Below are positions 7,622-64,000 of a DNA stretch of 64,000 nucleotides, piece by piece (position 1 is the stretch's first letter; the number at the start of each line of letters is the position of its first letter). Below the pieces are notes generated by a model that worked only from the letters and a program-made list of their open reading frames with translations, made no database searches and had not been told where the DNA came from. The stretch is from NCBI RefSeq assembly GCF_055900595.2, contig NZ_CM148325.1. One strand, written 5' to 3'. The translations under genes were made by a program, and so were the position numbers.

Positions 7622-8785
7622 ATGTTTGTAGAAGCATTGAAACGCCAGAACCCGGCACTGATTTCCGCCGCACTAAGATTGTGGCAACAGGGCAAGATCG
7701 CCCCGGACAGTTGGGTAATCGACGTGGATCAGATACTGGAAAACGGTAAGCGGCTGATTGAGACGGCGCGGCTTTACGGCATTGAACTGTATCTGATGAC
7801 CAAGCAGTTTGGTCGTAATCCGTGGCTGGCGGAAAAACTACTGGCATTGGGCTACAGCGGCATTGTGGCGGTGGATTACAAAGAGGCGCGAGTCATGCGC
7901 CGCGCCGGTTTGCCGGTGGCGCATCAGGGGCATCTGGTACAAATCCCTTGTCATCAGGTTTCTGACGCCGTTGAACAGGGCACCGACGTCATCACCGTGT
8001 TTACACTCGACAAAGCGCGGGAAGTTTCTGCCGCAGCGGTGACGGCCGGGCGGGTCCAGCCTGTGCTGCTCAAAGTTTATAGCGACGATGATTTTCTTTA
8101 TCCGGGGCAGGAGAGCGGTTTTGCACAGCATTCGCTGCATGAGGTGGTTGCTGAAATCCAGAAACTACCGGGGTTACATTTAGCCGGATTAACCCATTTC
8201 CCTTGCCTGCTATGGGATGAGGCTGCCGGGAAAGTTTTGCCAACACCGAACCTCCAGACGCTGGTCAATGCTCGTAACCAACTTCTGAAGTCTGGAGTTG
8301 TACTTGAGCAATTAAACGCGCCTTCAGCGACCAGCTGCACTTCGCTGCCATTACTGGCGGAATACGGTGTGACTCATGCCGAACCCGGCCATGCACTGAC
8401 GGGGACGATTCCGGCAAACCAGCAGGGCGACCAACCCGAACGTATCGCCATGCTTTGGCTGAGCGAAATTTCCCATCACTTCCGTGGCGACAGCTACTGC
8501 TACGGCGGCGGTTATTACCGTCGTGGTCACGCGCAACATGCGCTGGTGTTTACGCCAGAAAATCAAAAGATTACTGAAACCAATATCAAAACTGTGGATG
8601 ACAGCAGTATCGACTACACCCTGCCGCTGGCAGGCGAGTATCCGGTGAGCAGTGCAGTGGTGCTCTGTTTTCGCACGCAGATTTTTGTCACCCGTAGCGA
8701 TGTGGTGCTGGTGTCCGGTATTCACCGTGGCGAACCGGAAATCGTTGGTCGTTATGACAGTCTTGGAAGCTCTCTGGAGGCGTAA
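7622..8785 (+). CDS. yhfX: putative PLP-dependent enzyme (alanine-racemase-like fold), function unknown
   Basis: 387-aa ORF; stop overlaps yhfW start by 1 nt. Confidence 0.75.
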
Positions 8786-10011
8786 TGGCGCGATTTGTGG
8801 TGTTAGTGATTGATAGCTTTGGCGTAGGCGCAATGAAAGATGTCACGTTGGTGCGCCCACAGGATGCCGGGGCGAATACCTGTGGTCACATCCTGAGCCA
8901 ACTGCCGCATTTGCAGCTACCAACGCTGGAGAAGCTGGGGCTAATCAACGCATTAGGTTATGCGCCAGGCGATATGCAGCCGTCAGACTCCGCAACCTGG
9001 GGTGTGGCAGAGCTGCAACATGAAGGTGGCGATACCTTTATGGGGCATCAGGAAATTTTAGGCACGCGCCCGTTACCGCCGCTGCGGATGCCCTTTCGCG
9101 ATGTGATTGACCGTGTTGAACAGGCATTAGTCACCGCTGGCTGGCGGGTTGAGCGCCGTGGCGAAGAGTTGCAATTTCTGTGGGTTAATCAGTCGGTTGC
9201 CATTGGCGATAACCTCGAGGCGGATTTAGGCCAGGTCTATAACATCACCGCCAATCTCTCTGCGATCTCTTTTGACGACGCAATCAAAATTGGTCGTATC
9301 GTGCGTGAGCAGGTACAGGCCGGTCGGGTCATTACATTTGGCGGCCTGTTAACTGACAGTCAGCGCATTCTCGATGCCGCAGAAAGCAAAGAAGGGCGCT
9401 TTATTGGCATCAATGCGCCGCGTTCTGGCGCTTATGACAATGGCTTCCAGGTCGTACATATGGGCTACGGCGTCGATGAAAAAGTGCAGGTGCCGCACCA
9501 ACTGCATCAAGTGGGCGTGCCCACGGTGCTGGTGGGTAAGGTGGCAGATATTGTCAGCAATCCTTATGGCGTGAGCTGGCAAAACCTGGTGGATAGCCAG
9601 CGGATTATGGATGTCACCCTCGACGAATTTAACACGCATCCGACGGCGTTTATTTGCACCAATATCCAGGAAACCGACCTCGCTGGTCACGCAGAAGACG
9701 TCGCACGTTATGCTGAACGTTTGCAGGTCGTTGACCGTAACCTTGTCCGGCTTGTTGAGGCGATGCAGCCAGATGATTGCCTGGTCGTGATGGCGGATCA
9801 CGGTAACGATCCGACCATTGGTCACAGCCACCATACCCGTGAAGTAGTGCCAGTGCTGGTTTATCAGCAAGGGCTGGTCCACACGCAACTCGGTGTGCGC
9901 ACCACGCTTTCTGATGTGGGGGCTACCGTGTGTGAATTTTTCCGTGCGCCACCGCCACAAAATGGTCGCTCTTTTCTTTCCTCCCTCCGGTTTGCAGGAG
10001 ACACCCTATGA
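8785..10011 (+). CDS. yhfW: phosphopentomutase-like metalloenzyme, function unknown
   Basis: 408-aa ORF; N-terminus [11 protein letters not shown] resembles the DeoB metal-binding DSxGxG motif; overlaps php by 4 nt. Confidence 0.75.
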
Positions 10012-24515: not shown

Positions 24516-26606
24516 TTACGCCTTCGAATCCCGTAACTTCCGACTCAACCAAATCCCATGATGCGGTCGCTGCCGCCATGCCATCGACGAAATGGTGTGC
24601 ATGGTGTTCAGATGACCAATAACCCGCTGTAAATGCTGCTCCAGCGTGCCTGCTGCACCTTCGTGCGGCTGCATCTCCGGCGCATCCATAATATTGGCAT
24701 CGCCAGAACTACCTGGTTCGTCATATTCCAGTCGCTGCTGACAACGCTGAATGGCGATTTCACAAGACTGCAAATATTCTTGCGCCAGTTCAGGTGGCAA
24801 TGCCCGGTGTTCCCGTGCCAGCGTGGTCATGGCATTGATATGCTCAACAATAAACTGACTGTGCGTTACCCACAGTTTCATATCTGCCAGATAATGGCTG
24901 TTGAATGCCGGTTCCTGCATCGCCTGATTCAATGAGTTATACAGAGTGTTATGCGCCTGATTCACCCGCATTCGCTGCCAGGCCAGTGGCGTTGGTTGCG
25001 GATCCTCGCTCAGAATCAAACGAATCGCTTCCTGATAGGCTTCTAAAGCGTCATGGGCGTTCTTACGCAATAAGCCACTCTGCCACTGCGGCCACAGCCA
25101 GACAGTTCCGCCGAAAGCAATCAAACAACCAATAATGGTGTCGATAAGACGCGGAAGGATGTACTGCTCGCCGTTCAACCACAATAGTTGCAGGGTATAC
25201 ACCGCAGTAATGGTAAAACCGACCGTCGCCCAGCCGTAGTTTTTGCGTAATATCAGGTAGCTGGCGAGGGTGGTAATCAGCATCAAGGTCAGGGTGTAAC
25301 CTTCGGGAATTTTAAAGTGCAGGGCAACGCCCGCAATGATTAACCCGACCACGGTTCCCACGGAGCGATTCACAATCCTCAGACGGGTTGCGCCATAGCC
25401 ATTTTGCGTCACCAGCAATACCGTCATCAGGATCCAGTACGACTTCGGTAGATGCAGTGCGGTGCCCATCAGGCTGGCAACGCTTAACATCACACTGAGT
25501 CGTCCGGCATTGCGTAGCGCCGGAGACTTTAGTGACAGATAACTTTTCAGCGCCGGAAGTAACGGCATTCGCCGCTGTTTATCGGCCAGTAAGTCACGGG
25601 CATAGAGCGGTTTTTGGGTGCGCAGCACGCGGGCGATGCGGCTGAAGTGCCAATAGCAGAATTGCCCAACAGGATTATCCGGATGCTGGCGGGCGATTTT
25701 TTCCAGTGCGCCAATTTGTTTTTCCATCGTAAAGCGCGTCGGCAGGCGATGGTAAAGAATGTCATCAGCCAGCACGCGCAGGCGAGTGGCGACAGTTTGC
25801 GCATTCCAGCGGATAACTTCTTCCGCATGGCTACGCTCGACCAGCTTTTGCACCTCTTCCGGTTGATGCAAGCTGACCGAAATATGTTCCTGTAAATCCA
25901 GCGCCTCCTGGAAAATACGCAGCATCCGCTTGTAATCGGTATTATTTTGCGCGGAAAGCATATGCATTTGCTGATAGCACTGGGTAATTAAATCGACCGC
26001 TTTTTGCTGGCGCACCAGCAGCGGCGGCAGCGCTTTTTCAGGGTCGGTGTGCTGGGTAAGCAGGCTGTATTTAGCTTCGCAATAATCTGCCAGTTCACGG
26101 TACAGCAGACTTAGTGACTCGCGTAGCGGTTGTTCGCGCCAGAGCCAGAACCAAAACCAGTTAAACAGTCCGTACCACAACGTGCCCAGCGCATAGATCA
26201 GCAACGGTTCCCAGACAGGCATGTATCCCGCCAGACTGAGGGTAAAAATGGCGGCGAGTAGTGATGCGGGAAGCAATTTTGCGTGCAATGGCCCCAGCTC
26301 AGCAGTGACGCCAAGTACCAGTGTTAATCCGGTCAGCAAAAAGGGCAGGGGAACATCTTTTGCCAGTAACAGCTGCGTCAGCAAGCTACAGGTGGCAAAC
26401 AGCGACGCACCAATGATTAAGCGTTTGAAAAAACGTTTATGAGGCGTATCAAGGCCCGCAATATTGCAACAAGCAGGAACGAGGGAGAAGAGCAGACCGA
26501 ATCGTAATTCGCCAAGCATTAACCCAACGGCCACGGGCAAACATAGCACCAGCGTTTGTCGAAGTGCATAGTTGATATCGGGGTGATAAATCAGTCTGCG
26601 CCACAT
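24516..26606 (-). CDS. yhfK: large inner-membrane protein of the fusaric-acid-resistance / aromatic acid exporter-like family
   Basis: Start taken at internal ATG (MWRRLIYHPD..., 696 aa); track ORF extends 4 codons upstream to a TTG. Confidence 0.8.
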   Translation of the reverse strand: MWRRLIYHPDINYALRQTLVLCLPVAVGLMLGELRFGLLFSLVPACCNIAGLDTPHKRFFKRLIIGASLFATCSLLTQLLLAKDVPLPFLLTGLTLVLGVTAELGPLHAKLLPASLLAAIFTLSLAGYMPVWEPLLIYALGTLWYGLFNWFWFWLWREQPLRESLSLLYRELADYCEAKYSLLTQHTDPEKALPPLLVRQQKAVDLITQCYQQMHMLSAQNNTDYKRMLRIFQEALDLQEHISVSLHQPEEVQKLVERSHAEEVIRWNAQTVATRLRVLADDILYHRLPTRFTMEKQIGALEKIARQHPDNPVGQFCYWHFSRIARVLRTQKPLYARDLLADKQRRMPLLPALKSYLSLKSPALRNAGRLSVMLSVASLMGTALHLPKSYWILMTVLLVTQNGYGATRLRIVNRSVGTVVGLIIAGVALHFKIPEGYTLTLMLITTLASYLILRKNYGWATVGFTITAVYTLQLLWLNGEQYILPRLIDTIIGCLIAFGGTVWLWPQWQSGLLRKNAHDALEAYQEAIRLILSEDPQPTPLAWQRMRVNQAHNTLYNSLNQAMQEPAFNSHYLADMKLWVTHSQFIVEHINAMTTLAREHRALPPELAQEYLQSCEIAIQRCQQRLEYDEPGSSGDANIMDAPEMQPHEGAAGTLEQHLQRVIGHLNTMHTISSMAWRQRPHHGIWLSRKLRDSKA

Positions 26607-32247: not shown

Positions 32248-32952
32248 ATGATGTCTCAGCCAGCGAAAGTTTTGCTGCTGTATGCCCATCCGGAATCTCA
32301 GGACTCGGTGGCAAACCGGGTACTGCTTAAACCGGCCACGCAGCTCAGCAATGTTACCGTGCACGACCTTTATGCACACTATCCCGATTTTTTTATTGAT
32401 ATCCCCCGTGAGCAGGCATTACTGCGCGAGCACGAGGTGATTGTCTTTCAGCACCCTCTTTATACCTATAGCTGCCCGGCGCTACTGAAAGAGTGGCTGG
32501 ACCGGGTATTAAGCCGTGGTTTTGCCAGCGGGCCGGGAGGAAACCAACTGGCGGGAAAGTACTGGCGTAGCGTGATTACCACCGGCGAGCCGGAAAGTGC
32601 TTACCGTTATGACGCATTGAATCGCTACCCGATGAGCGATGTTCTGCGCCCCTTTGAGCTGGCGGCGGGCATGTGCCGGATGCATTGGTTAAGTCCTATC
32701 ATTATTTACTGGGCGAGACGGCAAAGCGCACAGGAGCTGGCGAGTCACGCCAGAGCCTACGGTGACTGGCTGGCAATCCGCTGTCTCCAGGAGGCTGCTG
32801 ATGGAAGGTTCCGATTTTTTACTCGCAGGAGTGCTGTTTCTCTTCGCGGCGGTGGCTGCGGTGCCGTTGGCATCGCGGCTGGGTATTGGCGCGGTGTTGG
32901 GATATTTGCTGGCAGGGATTGCAATTGGCCCGTGGGGGCTAGGGTTTATTAG
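32248..32952 (+). CDS. kefG: glutathione-regulated K+ efflux ancillary protein KefG (NAD(P)H quinone-oxidoreductase-like); 3' end apparently frameshifted
   Basis: As read, a 234-aa ORF running 152 nt into kefB; inserting one A at the AA pair around 32775-32776 restores a 184-aa product ending at TGA overlapping the kefB ATG. Confidence 0.8.
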
Positions 32953-34606
32953 CGACGTCGATGAGATCCTCCACTTTTCGGAACTCGGCGTGGTATTCCT
33001 GATGTTTATCATCGGCCTTGAGTTGAATCCCTCCAAGCTTTGGCAACTGCGCCGTTCGATTTTTGGCGTAGGCGCGGCACAGGTGCTGTTAAGCGCGGCG
33101 TTGCTGGCGGGATTATTGATGCTGACGGATTTCGCCTGGCAGGCGGCGGTGGTCGGTGGCATTGGCCTTGCGATGTCTTCAACTGCAATGGCGTTGCAAT
33201 TGATGCGTGAGAAAGGGATGAATCGCAGCGAATCCGGCCAGTTAGGTTTCTCGGTACTGCTGTTTCAGGATCTGGCGGTGATCCCGGCACTGGCGTTAGT
33301 ACCGCTGCTGGCGGGATCGGCAGATGAACATTTTGACTGGATGAAGATCGGCATGAAGGTGCTGGCGTTTGTCGGCATGCTGATTGGGGGGCGCTATTTA
33401 CTGCGTCCGGTATTCCGTTTTATTGCTGCTTCTGGCGTGCGGGAAGTGTTCACTGCCGCGACGCTGTTGCTGGTGTTGGGTTCCGCATTGTTTATGGATG
33501 CGCTGGGGTTGTCGATGGCGCTCGGTACGTTTATTGCGGGCGTGCTGCTGGCGGAAAGTGAATATCGCCATGAACTGGAAACGGCTATCGATCCCTTCAA
33601 AGGCTTGCTGCTCGGACTGTTTTTTATCTCTGTCGGCATGTCGCTCAACCTCGGGGTGCTTTATACCCATCTGTTGTGGGTAGTGATAAGCGTGGTTGTG
33701 CTGGTGGCGGTGAAAATTCTCGTGCTGTATTTGCTGGCGCGGCTGTATGGCGTGCGTAGCTCAGAGCGGATGCAGTTTGCTGGCGTGTTGAGTCAGGGCG
33801 GTGAGTTTGCCTTTGTCCTCTTTTCTACCGCTTCTTCACAACGCTTATTCCAGGGCGACCAGATGGCGCTATTGCTGGTGACGGTGACGCTTTCCATGAT
33901 GACCACGCCGCTGCTGATGAAGCTGGTGGATAAATGGCTATCCCGCCAGTTTAACGGACCGGAAGAAGAAGACGAAAAACCGTGGGTCAACGATGATAAA
34001 CCCCAGGTCATAGTCGTGGGCTTCGGACGTTTTGGGCAGGTGATTGGTCGTTTGTTGATGGCCAATAAAATGCGCATTACCGTGCTGGAGCGGGATATCA
34101 GTGCTGTTAACCTGATGCGCAAATATGGCTACAAAGTTTATTACGGCGACGCCACGCAGGTAGATCTTTTACGTTCTGCGGGTGCAGAGGCCGCAGAGTC
34201 AATCGTCATTACCTGTAACGAACCGGAAGACACCATGAAGCTGGTGGAAATATGCCAGCAGCACTTCCCGCATTTGCATATTCTTGCGCGAGCGCGCGGA
34301 CGTGTGGAAGCGCATGAGTTATTACAGGCCGGGGTGACGCAGTTTTCCCGTGAAACATTCTCCAGTGCGTTAGAGCTGGGGCGCAAGACGTTGGTTACGC
34401 TTGGGATGCATCCGCATCAGGCACAGCGGGCGCAACTGCATTTTCGCCGCCTGGATATGCGGATGTTGCGGGAGCTCATACCGATGCATGCCGATACCGT
34501 ACAAATTTCTCGCGCCAGGGAAGCCCGACGCGAACTGGAAGAGATCTTCCAGCGTGAAATGCAACAAGAACGACGCCAGCTGGATGGCTGGGATGAATTT
34601 GAGTAG
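32801..34606 (+). CDS. kefB: glutathione-regulated potassium-efflux system protein KefB
   Basis: 601-aa reading from ATG ([15 protein letters not shown]...) preceded by GGAGG; track ORF starts 13 codons upstream. Confidence 0.9.
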
Positions 34607-44190: not shown

Positions 44191-44654
44191 CGGCCTGCCA
44201 GCAAACTATCCCAGCCTACAACGAAACCCGCAGCCGCCAGAAATGGCCCAAACGGCAGCGGGTTTTTTAATGACTCTTTTCCTCTCATGAGCAGACCAAT
44301 AACTACGGCTCCGCAAGCGAATGAGGCAGCAAGGAAAACCAGTCGTGGCAAGAAGGTCCATGTATGCCAGGCACCAAGGGCGGCGAGAAACTTCACATCA
44401 CCATAGCCTAATCCTTCTTTATGACGCAGTATGCGATACCCCCAGTAAATGACAGCGAATGTGCCGTAACCAATAATCGCCCCCCATAACGCATCGGCTA
44501 AACCGTCAGGATTACAAACCTGATAGAACAAAAGACCTGACCAGAGTAACGGGCACGTAAATCTGTCAGGTAACAAGCCATGCTTTGCATCCCAGAAAAA
44601 AAGTAGGGCTGATAAACAAGCGTACAAAATCAGAAAGGGAAGGGTAGCGTCCAT
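44187..44654 (-). CDS. short-form prepilin (leader) peptidase, A24 family, HopD-like
   Basis: 155-aa polytopic ORF with [14 protein letters not shown] (GxGD catalytic aspartate motif); stop codon shares 3 nt with the bfr stop. Confidence 0.7.
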
Positions 44655-44827
44655 AAAACATCCTCTGTAATTGGAGTATCACCATCGAATAACTGCGGAT
44701 GCTCAGCAACAGAGAAATCGCTGATTTGTTAACCTGATTCCGGTGAAAAACGCTATCTTCACAACCTTACAAATTTCGTGGAATGCAGCTCGCAATCTGC
44801 GCGTTGCGATTAATTTCTACCCGATGC

Positions 44828-44855
44828 TTGCGTCAGGCTCAGATTTGCGTATAAT
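44828..44855 (+). promoter_or_regulatory. S10 operon promoter (-35 TTGCGT, 16-nt spacer, -10 TATAAT)
   Basis: Hexamers about 180 nt upstream of rpsJ, consistent with the known long S10 leader. Confidence 0.7.
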
Positions 44856-57273: not shown

Positions 57274-58263
57274 ATGCAGGGTTCTGTGACAGAGTTTCTA
57301 AAACCGCGCCTGGTTGATATCGAGCAAATGAGTTCGACGCACGCCAAGGTGACCCTTGAGCCTTTAGAGCGTGGCTTTGGCCATACTCTGGGTAACGCAC
57401 TGCGCCGTATTCTGCTCTCATCGATGCCGGGTTGCGCGGTGACCGAGGTTGAGATTGATGGTGTACTACATGAGTACAGCACCAAAGAAGGCGTTCAGGA
57501 AGATATCCTGGAAATCCTGCTCAACCTGAAAGGGCTGGCGGTGAGAGTTCAGGGCAAAGATGAAGTTATTCTTACCTTGAATAAATCTGGCATTGGCCCT
57601 GTGACTGCAGCCGATATCACCCACGACGGTGATGTCGAAATCGTCAAGCCGCAGCACGTGATCTGCCACCTGACCGATGAGAACGCGTCTATTAGCATGC
57701 GTATCAAAGTTCAGCGCGGTCGTGGTTATGTGCCGGCTTCTACCCGAATTCATTCGGAAGAAGATGAGCGCCCAATCGGCCGTCTGCTGGTCGACGCATG
57801 CTACAGCCCTGTGGAGCGTATTGCCTACAATGTTGAAGCAGCGCGTGTAGAACAGCGTACCGACCTGGACAAGCTGGTCATCGAAATGGAAACCAACGGC
57901 ACAATCGATCCTGAAGAGGCGATTCGTCGTGCGGCAACCATTCTGGCTGAACAACTGGAAGCTTTCGTTGACTTACGTGATGTACGTCAGCCTGAAGTGA
58001 AAGAAGAGAAACCAGAGTTCGATCCGATCCTGCTGCGCCCTGTTGACGATCTGGAATTGACTGTCCGCTCTGCTAACTGCCTTAAAGCAGAAGCTATCCA
58101 CTATATCGGTGATCTGGTACAGCGTACCGAGGTTGAGCTCCTTAAAACGCCTAACCTTGGTAAAAAATCTCTTACTGAGATTAAAGACGTGCTGGCTTCC
58201 CGTGGACTGTCTCTGGGCATGCGCCTGGAAAACTGGCCACCGGCAAGCATCGCTGACGAGTAA
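57274..58263 (+). CDS. rpoA: DNA-directed RNA polymerase alpha subunit
   Basis: 329-aa ORF. Confidence 0.98.
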
Positions 58264-58728: not shown

Positions 58729-58793
58729 ATACCCGTAGTATCCCCACTTATCTACAATAGCTGTACTCTTTTTGTTCATCCCCTGGAGTATTT

Positions 58794-59162
58794 ATGTGGT
58801 TACTTGACCAGTGGGCAGAGCGCCATATAGCAGAAGCGCAAGCGAAAGGTGAGTTTGATAACCTAGCTGGTAGCGGCGAACCATTAATCCTGGATGATGA
58901 TTCCCACGTGCCACCAGAATTACGTGCGGGGTATCGCTTGTTGAAGAATGCTGGTTGCTTACCGCCAGAACTTGAGCAACGGAGGGAAGCAATTCATCTT
59001 ATGGATATCCTCGAAGGTATCCGTCACGATGATCCGCAATATCAAGAGATTAGTCGTCGATTGTCATTACTGGAGTTAAAGCTGCGACAAGCAGGATTGA
59101 GTACCGATTTTTTACGCGGCGATTATGCTGACAAGTTGTTGAATAAAATCAACGATAACTAG
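58794..59162 (+). CDS. yhdN: DUF1992-family protein
   Basis: 122-aa ORF. Confidence 0.75.
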   Translation: MWLLDQWAERHIAEAQAKGEFDNLAGSGEPLILDDDSHVPPELRAGYRLLKNAGCLPPELEQRREAIHLMDILEGIRHDDPQYQEISRRLSLLELKLRQAGLSTDFLRGDYADKLLNKINDN

Positions 59163-59172
59163 TGGAGTATGT

Positions 59173-59598
59173 ATGTATCGCATTGGTGAGCTGGCAAAAA
59201 TGGCGGAAGTAACACCCGACACGATTCGTTATTACGAAAAGCAGCAGATGATGGAGCATGAAGTACGTACCGAAGGTGGGTTTCGCCTGTATACCGAAAG
59301 CGATCTCCAGCGATTGAAATTTATCCGCCATGCCAGACAACTTGGTTTCAGTCTGGAGTCGATCCGCGAGTTGCTGTCGATCCGTATCGATCCTGAGCAC
59401 CATACCTGTCAGGAGTCAAAAGGCATTGTGCAGGAAAGATTACAGGAAGTGGAAGCACGGATAGCCGAGTTGCAGAGTATGCAGCGTTCCCTCCAACGCC
59501 TTAACGATGCCTGTTGTGGGACCGCCCATAGCAGTGTTTATTGCTCGATTCTTGAAGCCCTTGAACAAGGGGCGAGTGGCATTAAGAGTGGTTGTTGA
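59173..59598 (+). CDS. zntR: MerR-family Zn(II)-responsive transcriptional regulator
   Basis: 141-aa ORF with N-terminal HTH (MYRIGELAKMAEVTPDTIRYYE) and C-terminal metal-binding Cys/His cluster. Confidence 0.9.
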   Translation: MYRIGELAKMAEVTPDTIRYYEKQQMMEHEVRTEGGFRLYTESDLQRLKFIRHARQLGFSLESIRELLSIRIDPEHHTCQESKGIVQERLQEVEARIAELQSMQRSLQRLNDACCGTAHSSVYCSILEALEQGASGIKSGC

Positions 59599-59653
59599 TT
59601 TTTTGCACTGGCGGGATTACACTCGCGCCGTTAAATAACCAACTGGAGTTTTT

Positions 59654-59872
59654 ATGAGCCGATATCAGCATACTAAAGGACAGATAAAAGATAATGCGAT
59701 AGAAGCATTGCTACATGATCCTTTATTCCGACAGCGTGTAGAGAAAAATAAGAAGGGGAAAGGTAGTTACATGCGGAAAGGAAAACATGGCAATCGGGGA
59801 AACTGGGAGGCCAGTGGCAAGAAAGTAAATCACTTTTTTACCACTGGCCTTCTGCTTTCAGGGGCTTTTTAA
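59654..59872 (+). CDS. arfA: alternative ribosome-rescue factor A
   Basis: 72-aa ORF; 9-bp inverted repeat GGCCAGTGG...CCACTGGCC inside its 3' region (about 59809-59849); stop shares nucleotides with the mscL stop. Confidence 0.8.
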
Positions 59873-60279
59873 GAGCGGTTATTCTGCTCTTTCAGCAAAT
59901 CACGAATTTCTGTCAGTAATACTTCTTCTTTAGTTGGCGCTGGCGCGGCTGCCGGTTCTTCTTTCTTACGATTCAGTTTGTTGATTAGCTTAATTGCCAT
60001 GAAGATGGCAAAGGCCACAATCAGAAAATCAAAGACGTTTTGAATGAAGACACCGTAATGCATCACAACAGCAGGGATATCCCCCTGCGCATCGCGTAGC
60101 GTGACAGCAAACTGTTTAAAATCGATCCCGCCAATTAATAAGCCCAGAGGAGGCATGATGATATCGGCAACCAGTGAAGAGACAATCTTCCCGAATGCCG
60201 CACCGATAATGACACCCACCGCCAAATCCACTACGTTCCCGCGCATCGCAAATTCGCGAAATTCTTTAATAATGCTCAT
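59869..60279 (-). CDS. mscL: large-conductance mechanosensitive channel
   Basis: 136-aa ORF, N-term [30 protein letters not shown]. Confidence 0.95.
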
Positions 60280-60408
60280 GTTATTCTCCCTATGAAGCCG
60301 ACAACCATAAGTCTAACAAATGTTAAGCCATTTTCCTGCCAGGAATGAATTTAATTAATCCTTGAGAATCAAAGGGAAATAATAAGGCGTCATAAGACGC
60401 CTTATTAA

Positions 60409-61785
60409 TTACAAAAAGAAAGGACTTGGCTGGAAGAGTCTTTCGACGTCGGTAATAAACTTTTTATCTGTGAGGAACATAATTACATGATCGCCTTGCT
60501 CAATACGCAGATTGTCATTGGCAATCATCACATCATTGCCGCGTACTACAGCACCAATAATCGTTCCTGGCGGTAGCTTGATTTCGTCAATGACTCTGCC
60601 GACAACGCGTGAGGTGCTTTCATCACCGTGAGCAACGGCTTCAATAGCTTCTGCTACGCCGCGGCGCAATGAGGAAACACCAACAATATCTGCTTTTCGC
60701 ACATGGCTAAGCAACGCAGAGATGGTCGCTTGTTGCGGTGAAATTGCAATATCGATCACGCTCCCCTGAACCAGATCCACATAAGCGCGACGCTGGATCA
60801 ATACCATCACCTTTTTCGCGCCCATACGTTTGGCGAGCATGGCGGACATAATATTGGCCTCGTCATCGTTGGTGACGGCAATAAACAGATCAACTTGATC
60901 GATGTGCTCTTCAGCCAGCAGTTCCTGATCCGATGCATCACCAAAAAAGACGATCGTATTCTGCAGCTTTTCCGCCAGCTCGGCAGCGCGCTGTTGATTA
61001 CGCTCGATGAGTTTGACGCTGTAATCTTTTTCCAGACGACGCGCCAGCCCTGCACCGATATTACCGCCGCCAACCAGCATGATCCGCTTATACGGTTTTT
61101 CCAGACGTTGCAATTCACTCATCACCGCGCGGATGTGTTGCGAAGCGGCAATAAAGAACACTTCATCACCAGCTTCAACAATGGTCGAACCTTGCGGACG
61201 AATAGGGCGATCGTGGCGGAAAATGGCTGCCACACGAGTATCGATATGCGGCATATGTTCGCGCATGGTCGAAAGTGCATTACCAATCAGTGGGCCGCCA
61301 TAATAGGCTTTAACCACAGCCAGGCTGACTTTACCCTCAGCGAAGTTCACTACCTGCAGCGCGCCGGGATACTCAATCAGTCGGTAAATATTATCGATAA
61401 CCAGCTGCTCTGGTGCGATCAGATGATCAATCGGTACAGCATCTGAATGAAATAGCTTATCGGCATCGCGCACGTAGTCTGGTGAGCGGATACGAGCGAT
61501 GCGATTAGGGGTGTTGAAAAGTGAGTAGGCTACCTGGCAGGCAACCATATTGGTTTCATCTGAACTGGTTACAGCAACCAGCATATCGGCGTCGTCGGCA
61601 CCTGCCTCCCGCAATACGCGTGGATGAGAGCCATGCCCCTGCACGACTCGCAGGTCAAATTTATCCTGCAAGGTCCGCAGACGCTCACCGTTGGTATCGA
61701 CAACAGTAATATCGTTGTTCTCGCCAACCAGGTTTTCCGCCAGTGTGCCGCCAACCTGGCCGGCACCCAGAATGATAATTTTCAT
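60409..61785 (-). CDS. trkA: Trk potassium-uptake system NAD-binding protein
   Basis: 458-aa ORF with two Rossmann GxGxxG motifs ([16 protein letters not shown]). Confidence 0.95.
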
Positions 61786-61806
61786 CAGTCGCGACCCGTT
61801 ATCTCA

Positions 61807-63096
61807 TCACTTTTTGATTAGCTTAGCGTAAAAGAAGCCGTCGCCCTCTTCGGCACCAGGCAGATTTTGCTTACCTGGTTGTTCTGGTGTTCCGGTTTCG
61901 CAAAGCATTGCATCTTCTGTGCGTTGCAGAAAGGCTTTAATTTGTTGGCTATTCTCTTCCGGTAACACTGAACAGGTGGCATAGACCAGGGTTCCACCGG
62001 ATTTTAAATGCGGCCAGATGGCGTCGAGAATTTCAGACTGCAACTGCGCGAGTTCAGGGATATCGCGATCGCGACGTAACCATTTAATATCCGGATGGCG
62101 ACGAATCACACCGGTTGCTGAACAAGGCGCATCTAATAAAATGCGATCAAACTGTTGCTCGCCACACCATTGGGAAGGGTAGCGGCCATCACCTTGTTTC
62201 ACGGTCGCCTTCATACCAAGGCGTTTTAAATTGTCGTAAACGCGAGAGAGGCGCTGTTCGTCAATATCAACCGCAACAACCTGCGCTTCTGGTGCCACCT
62301 CAAGGATATGCGTTGTTTTACCGCCGGGGGCAGCGCAAAGATCCAGAATGTGTTCACCGTTTTGTGGCGCAAGCCAGGCCATGCAACCTTGTGCTGATGC
62401 ATCCTGAACGGTAACCCATCCTTCTTCAAAACCTGGTAGCACATGAACAGGTGCAGGTGTTTCCAGCCGTACAGCATCAGGGTAATCCGCATGCGGGAAA
62501 CCTTTCATTCCTGCTTCATCCAGCAATGCAAGCCAGCTGTCGCGGGAATGATGCGTACGATTAACGCGCAGCCACATTGGCGGACGCTGGTTATTGGCTT
62601 CAATGATGGATTGCCATTGCTCTGGATACGCTTTTTGCAGACGCTTCAGCAACCAGGAAGGATGCAGATAACGTGCATCACTGGCATTAAACTCGGCTAA
62701 TAACTCTTCTTGCTGACGCTGGAACTGGCGTAATACGCCGTTAATCAACCCTTTAAGTTGCGGACGCTTAATTGCGACAGCACCTTCAACCGTTTCAGCC
62801 AGCGCAGCATGAGGTGGAATGCGGGTATAAAGCAGTTGATACAAACCAACCATAATCAGGTAATGCACAGTGCGCTGTTTGCCGGTCATCGGACGGGCCA
62901 TTAACTTATTAATCAGCCAGTCTAACTGTGAAAGCGTACGCAGTACGCCAAAGCACAATTCTTGAAGAAGTGCTTTGTCTTTATCGGAAACTTTTTGCTG
63001 GAGCGGTGGCAGAATGTTGCTTAATGATTGCCCTTGCTCGACGACTTGTTCAACGGCCTGTGCCGCCATGCTACGTAAATTACGTTGTTTTTTCAT
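61807..63096 (-). CDS. rsmB: 16S rRNA m5C967 methyltransferase
   Basis: 429-aa reading from ATG ([13 protein letters not shown]); track ORF starts 7 codons upstream at TTG; SAM-binding [10 protein letters not shown]. Confidence 0.9.
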
Positions 63097-63141
63097 AAGT
63101 ATAAAAATGCCCGGCAAGACCGGGCTTAGAAGAGTGGACTA

Positions 63142-64000
63142 TCAGACCAGACGGTTGCCCGGAACAAACCATTCCCGACGAGAATTCAGGAGGTCTTGCG
63201 CGCTCATCGCTTTCTTACCCGCAGGTTGTAACGAGAGCAGGTTCAGGATGCCACCACCCGTCGCAACCTGAATGCCTTGTTTATTGGCTTCAAGGATCGT
63301 TCCTGGTGCAGCGTTGGTTGCCGTATCAATGACCGACGCTTTCCAGACTTTAACCGGCTGTCCTTCAATTTCCAGCCAGCTCATTGGCCATGGATTGAAA
63401 GCGCGAATGCAGCGTTCAAGCTGCGCTGCCGAAAGCGACCAGTCAATACGCGCTTCTTCTTTACTCAACTTTTCGGCGTAAGTGACAAGAGTTTCGTCCT
63501 GAACTTCTGGTTTCGCCGTGCCGTCTGCCAGTTGTTTCAATGTGGTGATAAGCCCTTGTGGGCCAAGCTCTGCCAGCTTGTCGTACAGCGTACCACTGGT
63601 ATCTTCTGCAGTAATCGGGCAGGAGAGCTTATAGAGCATGTCACCGGTGTCTAAACCAACATCCATTTGCATAATGGTCACACCAGTTTCTGCATCACCC
63701 GCCCATAGTGAGCGTTGGATTGGTGCAGCACCGCGCCAGCGTGGCAGCAGTGAACCATGAACGTTGATACAGCCAAGACGCGGCATCTCCAGCACAGCTT
63801 TCGGCAGAATTAAACCATAGGCGACGACGACCATAACATCAGCCTGCAGGTCGGCGACCAGTTGCTGGTTTTCTTGTGGACGCAGGGAAACAGGTTGAAA
63901 AACGGGCAGACCTTTTTCCTCAGCCAGAACTTTAACCGGGCTGGGCATCAGTTTTTTACCGCGTCCTGCCGGTCGGTCTGGCTGGGTGAACACGCCAACG
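63142..64000 (-). CDS. fmt: methionyl-tRNA formyltransferase, 3' portion (5' end beyond window edge)
   Basis: Open frame continuing to window end; track shows 283 aa from an internal Met; follows rsmB. Confidence 0.85.

Follow-up and report, generated by a model that had tools for sequence, protein, structure and literature searches.

The 3′ end of kefG in the E. coli sequence considered here raises a simple question: does a gene that leaves its frame eight codons before its usual end carry a genuine mutation, or has a base been lost in determining the sequence? The window, by which is meant the whole stretch of 64,000 nucleotides that was analysed (contig NZ_CM148325.1 of RefSeq assembly GCF_055900595.2), contains the E. 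coli yheS / kefG-kefB / yheV / slyD region. KefG (YheR) is the ancillary subunit of the glutathione-gated K+/H+ antiporter KefB, and the gene in the window occupies the same place as the known one, between yheS and kefB. Ancillary Kef subunits are required for full activation of their transporters, KefG being needed for full activation of KefB, and an overlap of a few bases between the genes of subunit and transporter is typical (PMC10224563). During methylglyoxal stress, KefGB is the main system to be activated (PMC3412212).

As read in the window, kefG is a frameshifted open reading frame of 234 aa on the plus strand (32248..32952 in the list of open reading frames, as the initial annotation had stated), the first 176 residues of which are those of normal KefG. 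The initial annotation further held that an A is missing at the AA pair at 32775–32776. Alignment with three complete E. coli genomes bears this out: a single base is absent from the window, which has AA at 32775..32776 (plus strand) where every comparator has AAA, in codon 177 (AAT, Asn, in the wild type), and the window has one base fewer than all of the 26 comparator loci and genomes that were aligned. The repaired form that had been proposed, 184 aa long with its TGA overlapping the kefB ATG, agrees with the annotation of relatives, in which the last base of kefG is the first base of kefB, as TGATG. It should be noted that this annotation starts kefG at the second ATG, 32251, and so gives 183 aa; from the first ATG the product has 184 aa.

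The wild-type protein ends in NPLSPGGC in the closest lineage and in ...GGR in most E. coli. By comparison with the known KefG, the window exchanges the conserved eight-residue tail NPLSPGGC for 58 out-of-frame residues, and its gene ends 152 nt inside kefB. On translation, this tail (32776..32952, plus strand) comprises 58 codons at 32776–32949, ending in GARVY, and a stop at 32950–32952. The ancestral stop of relatives' annotation, TGA at 32799..32801 on the plus strand, the A of which is shared with the kefB ATG, is now out of frame and is read through. It had been claimed that the last 58 codons all lie inside kefB; this is correct for 50 of them and the stop (152 nt, 32801–32952), but the first eight lie upstream of the kefB ATG at 32801.

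What the frameshift costs the protein can be judged in several ways. Residues 1–176 are identical to WP_000081823.1, the KefG of the nearest relatives. The NCBIfam equivalog model for KefG, NF003430, scores the frameshifted protein at 344.7 bits, far in excess of its curated cut-off of 240, and the repaired protein at 354.1; the match of the frameshifted protein covers profile positions 1–176 of 184 and thus stops short of the full length, which includes the conserved C-terminal tail. The model for KefF is covered by the frameshifted protein at 168 of its 170 positions, and homologues in the PDB, among them the KefF portion of 3EYW (a KefC-KefF fusion), align across residues 7–173. An AlphaFold2 model built with 43 orthologues has a confident core with a last helix at 161–175, and pLDDT falls below 50 for residues 190–234. 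The whole flavodoxin-like domain (residues 1–176) is retained and the damage is limited; the 58-residue extension is predicted to be unstructured.

The paralogous pair KefF-KefC (yabF-kefC; PDB 3EYW, 3L9W, 3L9X) offers a useful comparison. KefF has the flavodoxin-like quinone-oxidoreductase fold in common with the KefG of the window, and its gene, like kefG beside kefB, lies upstream of and overlaps that of its transporter (PMC10224563). The protein of the window scores 186.9 bits against the KefF family, below the cut-off of 210, and is therefore KefG and not KefF. KefF is without the KefG-type PLxxGG tail, which is the part lost in the window. In KefG orthologues the tail conforms to WLxxP[LIV]xxGG, with W174 and L175 invariant and P178 conserved in at least 90%, and most of the orthologues end in GG followed by one residue; P178 and the GG motif are both lost in the window. 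The Gly-Gly of the tail is encoded by GGAGG, which doubles as the Shine-Dalgarno sequence of kefB (32789–32794). Because of this sharing, part of the conservation of the KefG tail may belong to kefB, the sequence being under a dual constraint. Nevertheless, so conserved a tail (with P178 present in at least 90% of orthologues, and with the GG motif) is a point against a real deletion, since purifying selection should oppose such a loss. By the same token it argues that selection favours the wild-type form, and hence speaks for the rival explanation, an isolated consensus error, according to which the strain has AAA and a normal 184-aa KefG coupled to kefB, and the A was lost in base-calling, assembly or polishing.

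The rarity of the allele also bears on this rival. A 50-nt query across the deletion site, placed so as to avoid variable positions on either side, found matches in 5,412 complete RefSeq E. coli genomes; the best matches were 98.0% identical, differing from the query only by the gap, and an exact copy of the window's 50-mer was found in none of the 5,412. The extra A was present in all of 22 further loci, drawn from isolates and metagenomes. The 34-mer across the deletion, GGTGACTGGCTGGCAATCCGCTGTCTCCAGGAGG, gave no match among species-representative genomes; it gave none among metagenome contigs either, a result of little weight since the wild-type control found just nine there. Neither the exact 234-aa product nor the exact 233-aa product occurs in a collection of about 15 billion proteins. 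A protein search with the tail only returned four fragments and was not exhaustive, as it missed three entries with the same alternative-frame tail (P0007, P0118 and P0126). KefG is 183 or 184 aa long in 83 of the best 120 KefG clusters, which span many enterobacterial genera. The expectation that the coupled 184-aa form is the norm is thus upheld, by the genomes at the site itself and by the lengths of the orthologues, and the converse, that the 234-aa form might be the common allele among orthologues, proved not to be so. An exact look-up of the KefB of the window found a very common allele (50,552 blocks), with a normal KefG at all ten of the places shown; being so common, this allele does not pick out close relatives. 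The deletion is therefore unique among all the public data searched, and a singleton allele is equally what a consensus error would look like.

The search for orthologues also brought up several long ‘KefG’ proteins. One such ‘KefG’ of 233 aa (P0126) stands under four GenBank accessions (GHK17845.1, GHK36978.1, GHL22439.1 and GHL26291.1) and derives from five assemblies of one project (BNEZ, BNFC, BNFR, BNFS and BNGC). The five loci, which we call L028–L032 (GCA_016586855.1, GCA_016586835.1, GCA_016587055.1, GCA_016586535.1 and GCA_016586475.1, with the kefG 3′ end at about 1745–1755), have, like the window, lost one nucleotide close to the 3′ end of kefG, and so pass into the same alternative kefB frame and on to the same stop. 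Unlike the window, which is clean, they have lost the A of a Dcm site, CCAGG, 12 nt downstream of the window's deletion site, a change that also damages the Shine-Dalgarno sequence of kefB, and they carry many other indels. Per 3 kb they show 3–5 gap openings, three of the five assemblies have a yheS call that is of the wrong size, split or fused, and the KefB call is 581 aa, apparently 20 residues shorter. Dcm sites are a recognised context of systematic error in nanopore base-calling. The 233-aa entries are probably systematic long-read artefacts, and P0126 was rejected as a precedent for a real natural allele on account of the gap openings, the aberrant yheS calls and the Dcm-site deletion. 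It follows that the recurrence of a frameshift across assemblies is no proof of its reality; false kefG frameshifts do reach the databases, and their recurrence in GenBank in five assemblies of one project lends some support to the view that the window holds another error.

The quality of the window itself points the other way. Its nearest complete genome, that of strain Z0117EC0005, is collinear with it over all 64 kb at 99.69% identity, and only two indels separate the two sequences: the single nucleotide in kefG and five nucleotides in an intergenic region near 63100, where the ATAAA that Z0117EC0005 has between rsmB and fmt is absent from the window. Among about 85 annotated genes, kefG alone is disrupted. 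The frameshift is thus not a chance feature of the list of open reading frames: it is the sole 1-nt indel in 64 kb and it affects the sole broken gene. None of the 239 homopolymer runs of at least five bases in the window differs in length; runs of length three number about 2,150, the affected one among them. No Dam, Dcm or EcoKI motif includes the site; no GATC lies close by, and the nearest Dcm site, which starts at 32787, is intact. A systematic artefact would be expected in a long homopolymer or at a Dam or Dcm site, in the company of many indels, whereas what is found is an A3 run outside any methylation motif with the only 1-nt indel of the window. The initial annotation had offered either a homopolymer sequencing error or a real variant that alters the C-terminus of KefG and may upset the coupling to kefB. 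Both alternatives stay, but ‘homopolymer’ is a weak label for a run of three, given that all 239 runs of five or more bases are clean. A random error would also have had to strike the final 24 nt of some gene among about 85, for which the coordinates give an estimate of about 3%. Taking these points together with those in its favour, we hold an isolated consensus error to be a substantial possibility that falls short of probable.

The position of the strain among its relatives is relevant to whether a real indel is to be expected. Four of the closest genomes form a tight clade with 1–3 differences over 25 kb, and 26 positions separate the window from every one of them; the window represents a sister lineage, about 0.1% distant from the four-genome clade. 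RMDEC465 was used as an outgroup, and differences on the window's own branch were counted outside three SNP patches. At about 11 isolated positions the window departs from Z0117EC0005 and RMDEC465 alike, and these positions are for that reason assigned to its own branch: seven changes are synonymous, three nonsynonymous and one intergenic. Such a pattern marks real divergence under purifying selection, not sequencing noise. With about 11 real changes on the branch, one real single-base indel is to be expected.

Other variation in the window deserves mention in its own right. At 57328, codon 19 of rpoA reads ATG in place of GTG (RpoA V19M), both comparison genomes having G; a 28-nt word across 57328 is shared by no complete E. 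coli genome, and this looks like a private substitution in an essential protein that is very conserved. The segment 58780–63900 (yhdN, zntR, arfA, mscL, trkA, rsmB and fmt) is strongly divergent from relatives that are otherwise 99.9% identical, with yhdN at 91% and trkA at 96% identity. For 58780–63200, none of 5,425 complete E. coli genomes exceeds 98.1% identity. The tract looks like a recombinant one from a lineage unsampled among complete genomes. Two smaller clusters separate the window from the nearest clade, one in yhfK (24726–25178; ten SNPs, all synonymous) and the other in the region of a prepilin peptidase gene (44274–44835; seven SNPs, two amino-acid changes); as their flanks are identical, small recombination patches are suggested. 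The yhfW gene (8785–10011) is intact in the window and is annotated in Z0117EC0005 as a pseudogene with an internal stop. Within kefG, at 32694–32697 (codons 149–150), no complete genome shares the window's synonymous haplotype AGT-CCT; theirs are AGT-CCC, AGC-CCC or, in RMDEC465, AGC-CCT. T32697 was considered as a private change and rejected, since RMDEC465 has it together with C32694; only the haplotype is unique.

It remains to consider kefB, which follows kefG directly on the same strand. The gene (32801..34606, plus strand) is intact and encodes 601 aa; its DNA is 100% identical to that of the nearest relative, with no gaps, and the NCBIfam KefB model NF002973 matches its product with 1190 bits over positions 1–602 of 602. 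As kefB thus bears no sign of relaxed constraint, the deletion, if real, would be recent. The Shine-Dalgarno sequence AGGAGG (32789..32794, plus strand), which in wild-type KefG also encodes the Gly-Gly, is likewise intact. Since it sits 6 nt upstream of the ATG, kefB can initiate alone. The TGATG is still there in the DNA but out of frame, and the two open reading frames overlap by 152 nt as against one. In a small hairpin, GUCUC is paired with GAGGC from the kefB Shine-Dalgarno sequence, and the local fold is no stabler than that of shuffled sequence (z = -0.1).

The same features bear on a further rival, in which the frameshift is functional, either because a ribosomal shift restores the tail or because the 58-aa overlapping product is itself selected. 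All that can be said for it is that the alternative frame of kefB happens to be open for 58 codons. The -1 shift that recoding would require falls at GCA-ATC-C, where there is no slippery heptamer, and the mRNA fold just described is no stabler than shuffled controls; none of the 5,412 genomes has the arrangement, nor do the orthologues in other genera; and the only other carriers of the tail, the predicted disorder of which also counts against a selected product, are in error-laden or single-contig assemblies. A programmed ribosomal frameshift was accordingly rejected, there being neither slippery site nor stimulatory structure nor conservation in relatives. Recoding or a functional overlapping product is so improbable that we consider it effectively excluded.

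We therefore favour, with modest confidence, a genuine 1-bp deletion that is private to this strain (AAA to AA in kefG codon 177), the strain belonging to an E. coli lineage with few sequenced relatives. The reasons are the clean assembly, the atypical context for an error, a position at which selection is tolerant and the real length of the branch. As regards tolerance, the lesion falls in the last 4% of non-essential kefG, and the extreme 3′ end of a non-essential gene is where an indel is most likely to be tolerated, whereas errors would fall anywhere.

If the deletion is real, its consequences can be sketched as follows. KefG with a swapped tail would keep no more than part of its function and might be unstable; as KefB needs KefG for its full activity, this matters. 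With the TGATG overlap lost, kefB would no longer gain from termination-reinitiation, although its own strong Shine-Dalgarno sequence would still drive translation. Ribosomes translating kefG would cross the kefB start, translate its first 152 nt in another frame and then stop. The net effect would be that glutathione-gated K+ efflux is modestly reduced, not lost. That the deletion has a measurable phenotype, the extended KefG and the uncoupled translation of kefG and kefB leading to lowered or deregulated protection by KefGB against electrophiles such as methylglyoxal, we regard as unlikely; if true, the strain would be a natural experiment on what the conserved tail of KefG and the overlap of stop and start codons contribute.

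The operon is the well-known KefGB, bearing a trivial single-base lesion; there is nothing new in kind, and little importance attaches to it beyond annotation. If the missing base is an error, kefG should be annotated as a normal 184-aa protein. If, as we favour, the deletion is real, the strain has a slightly damaged KefGB system for protection against electrophiles.
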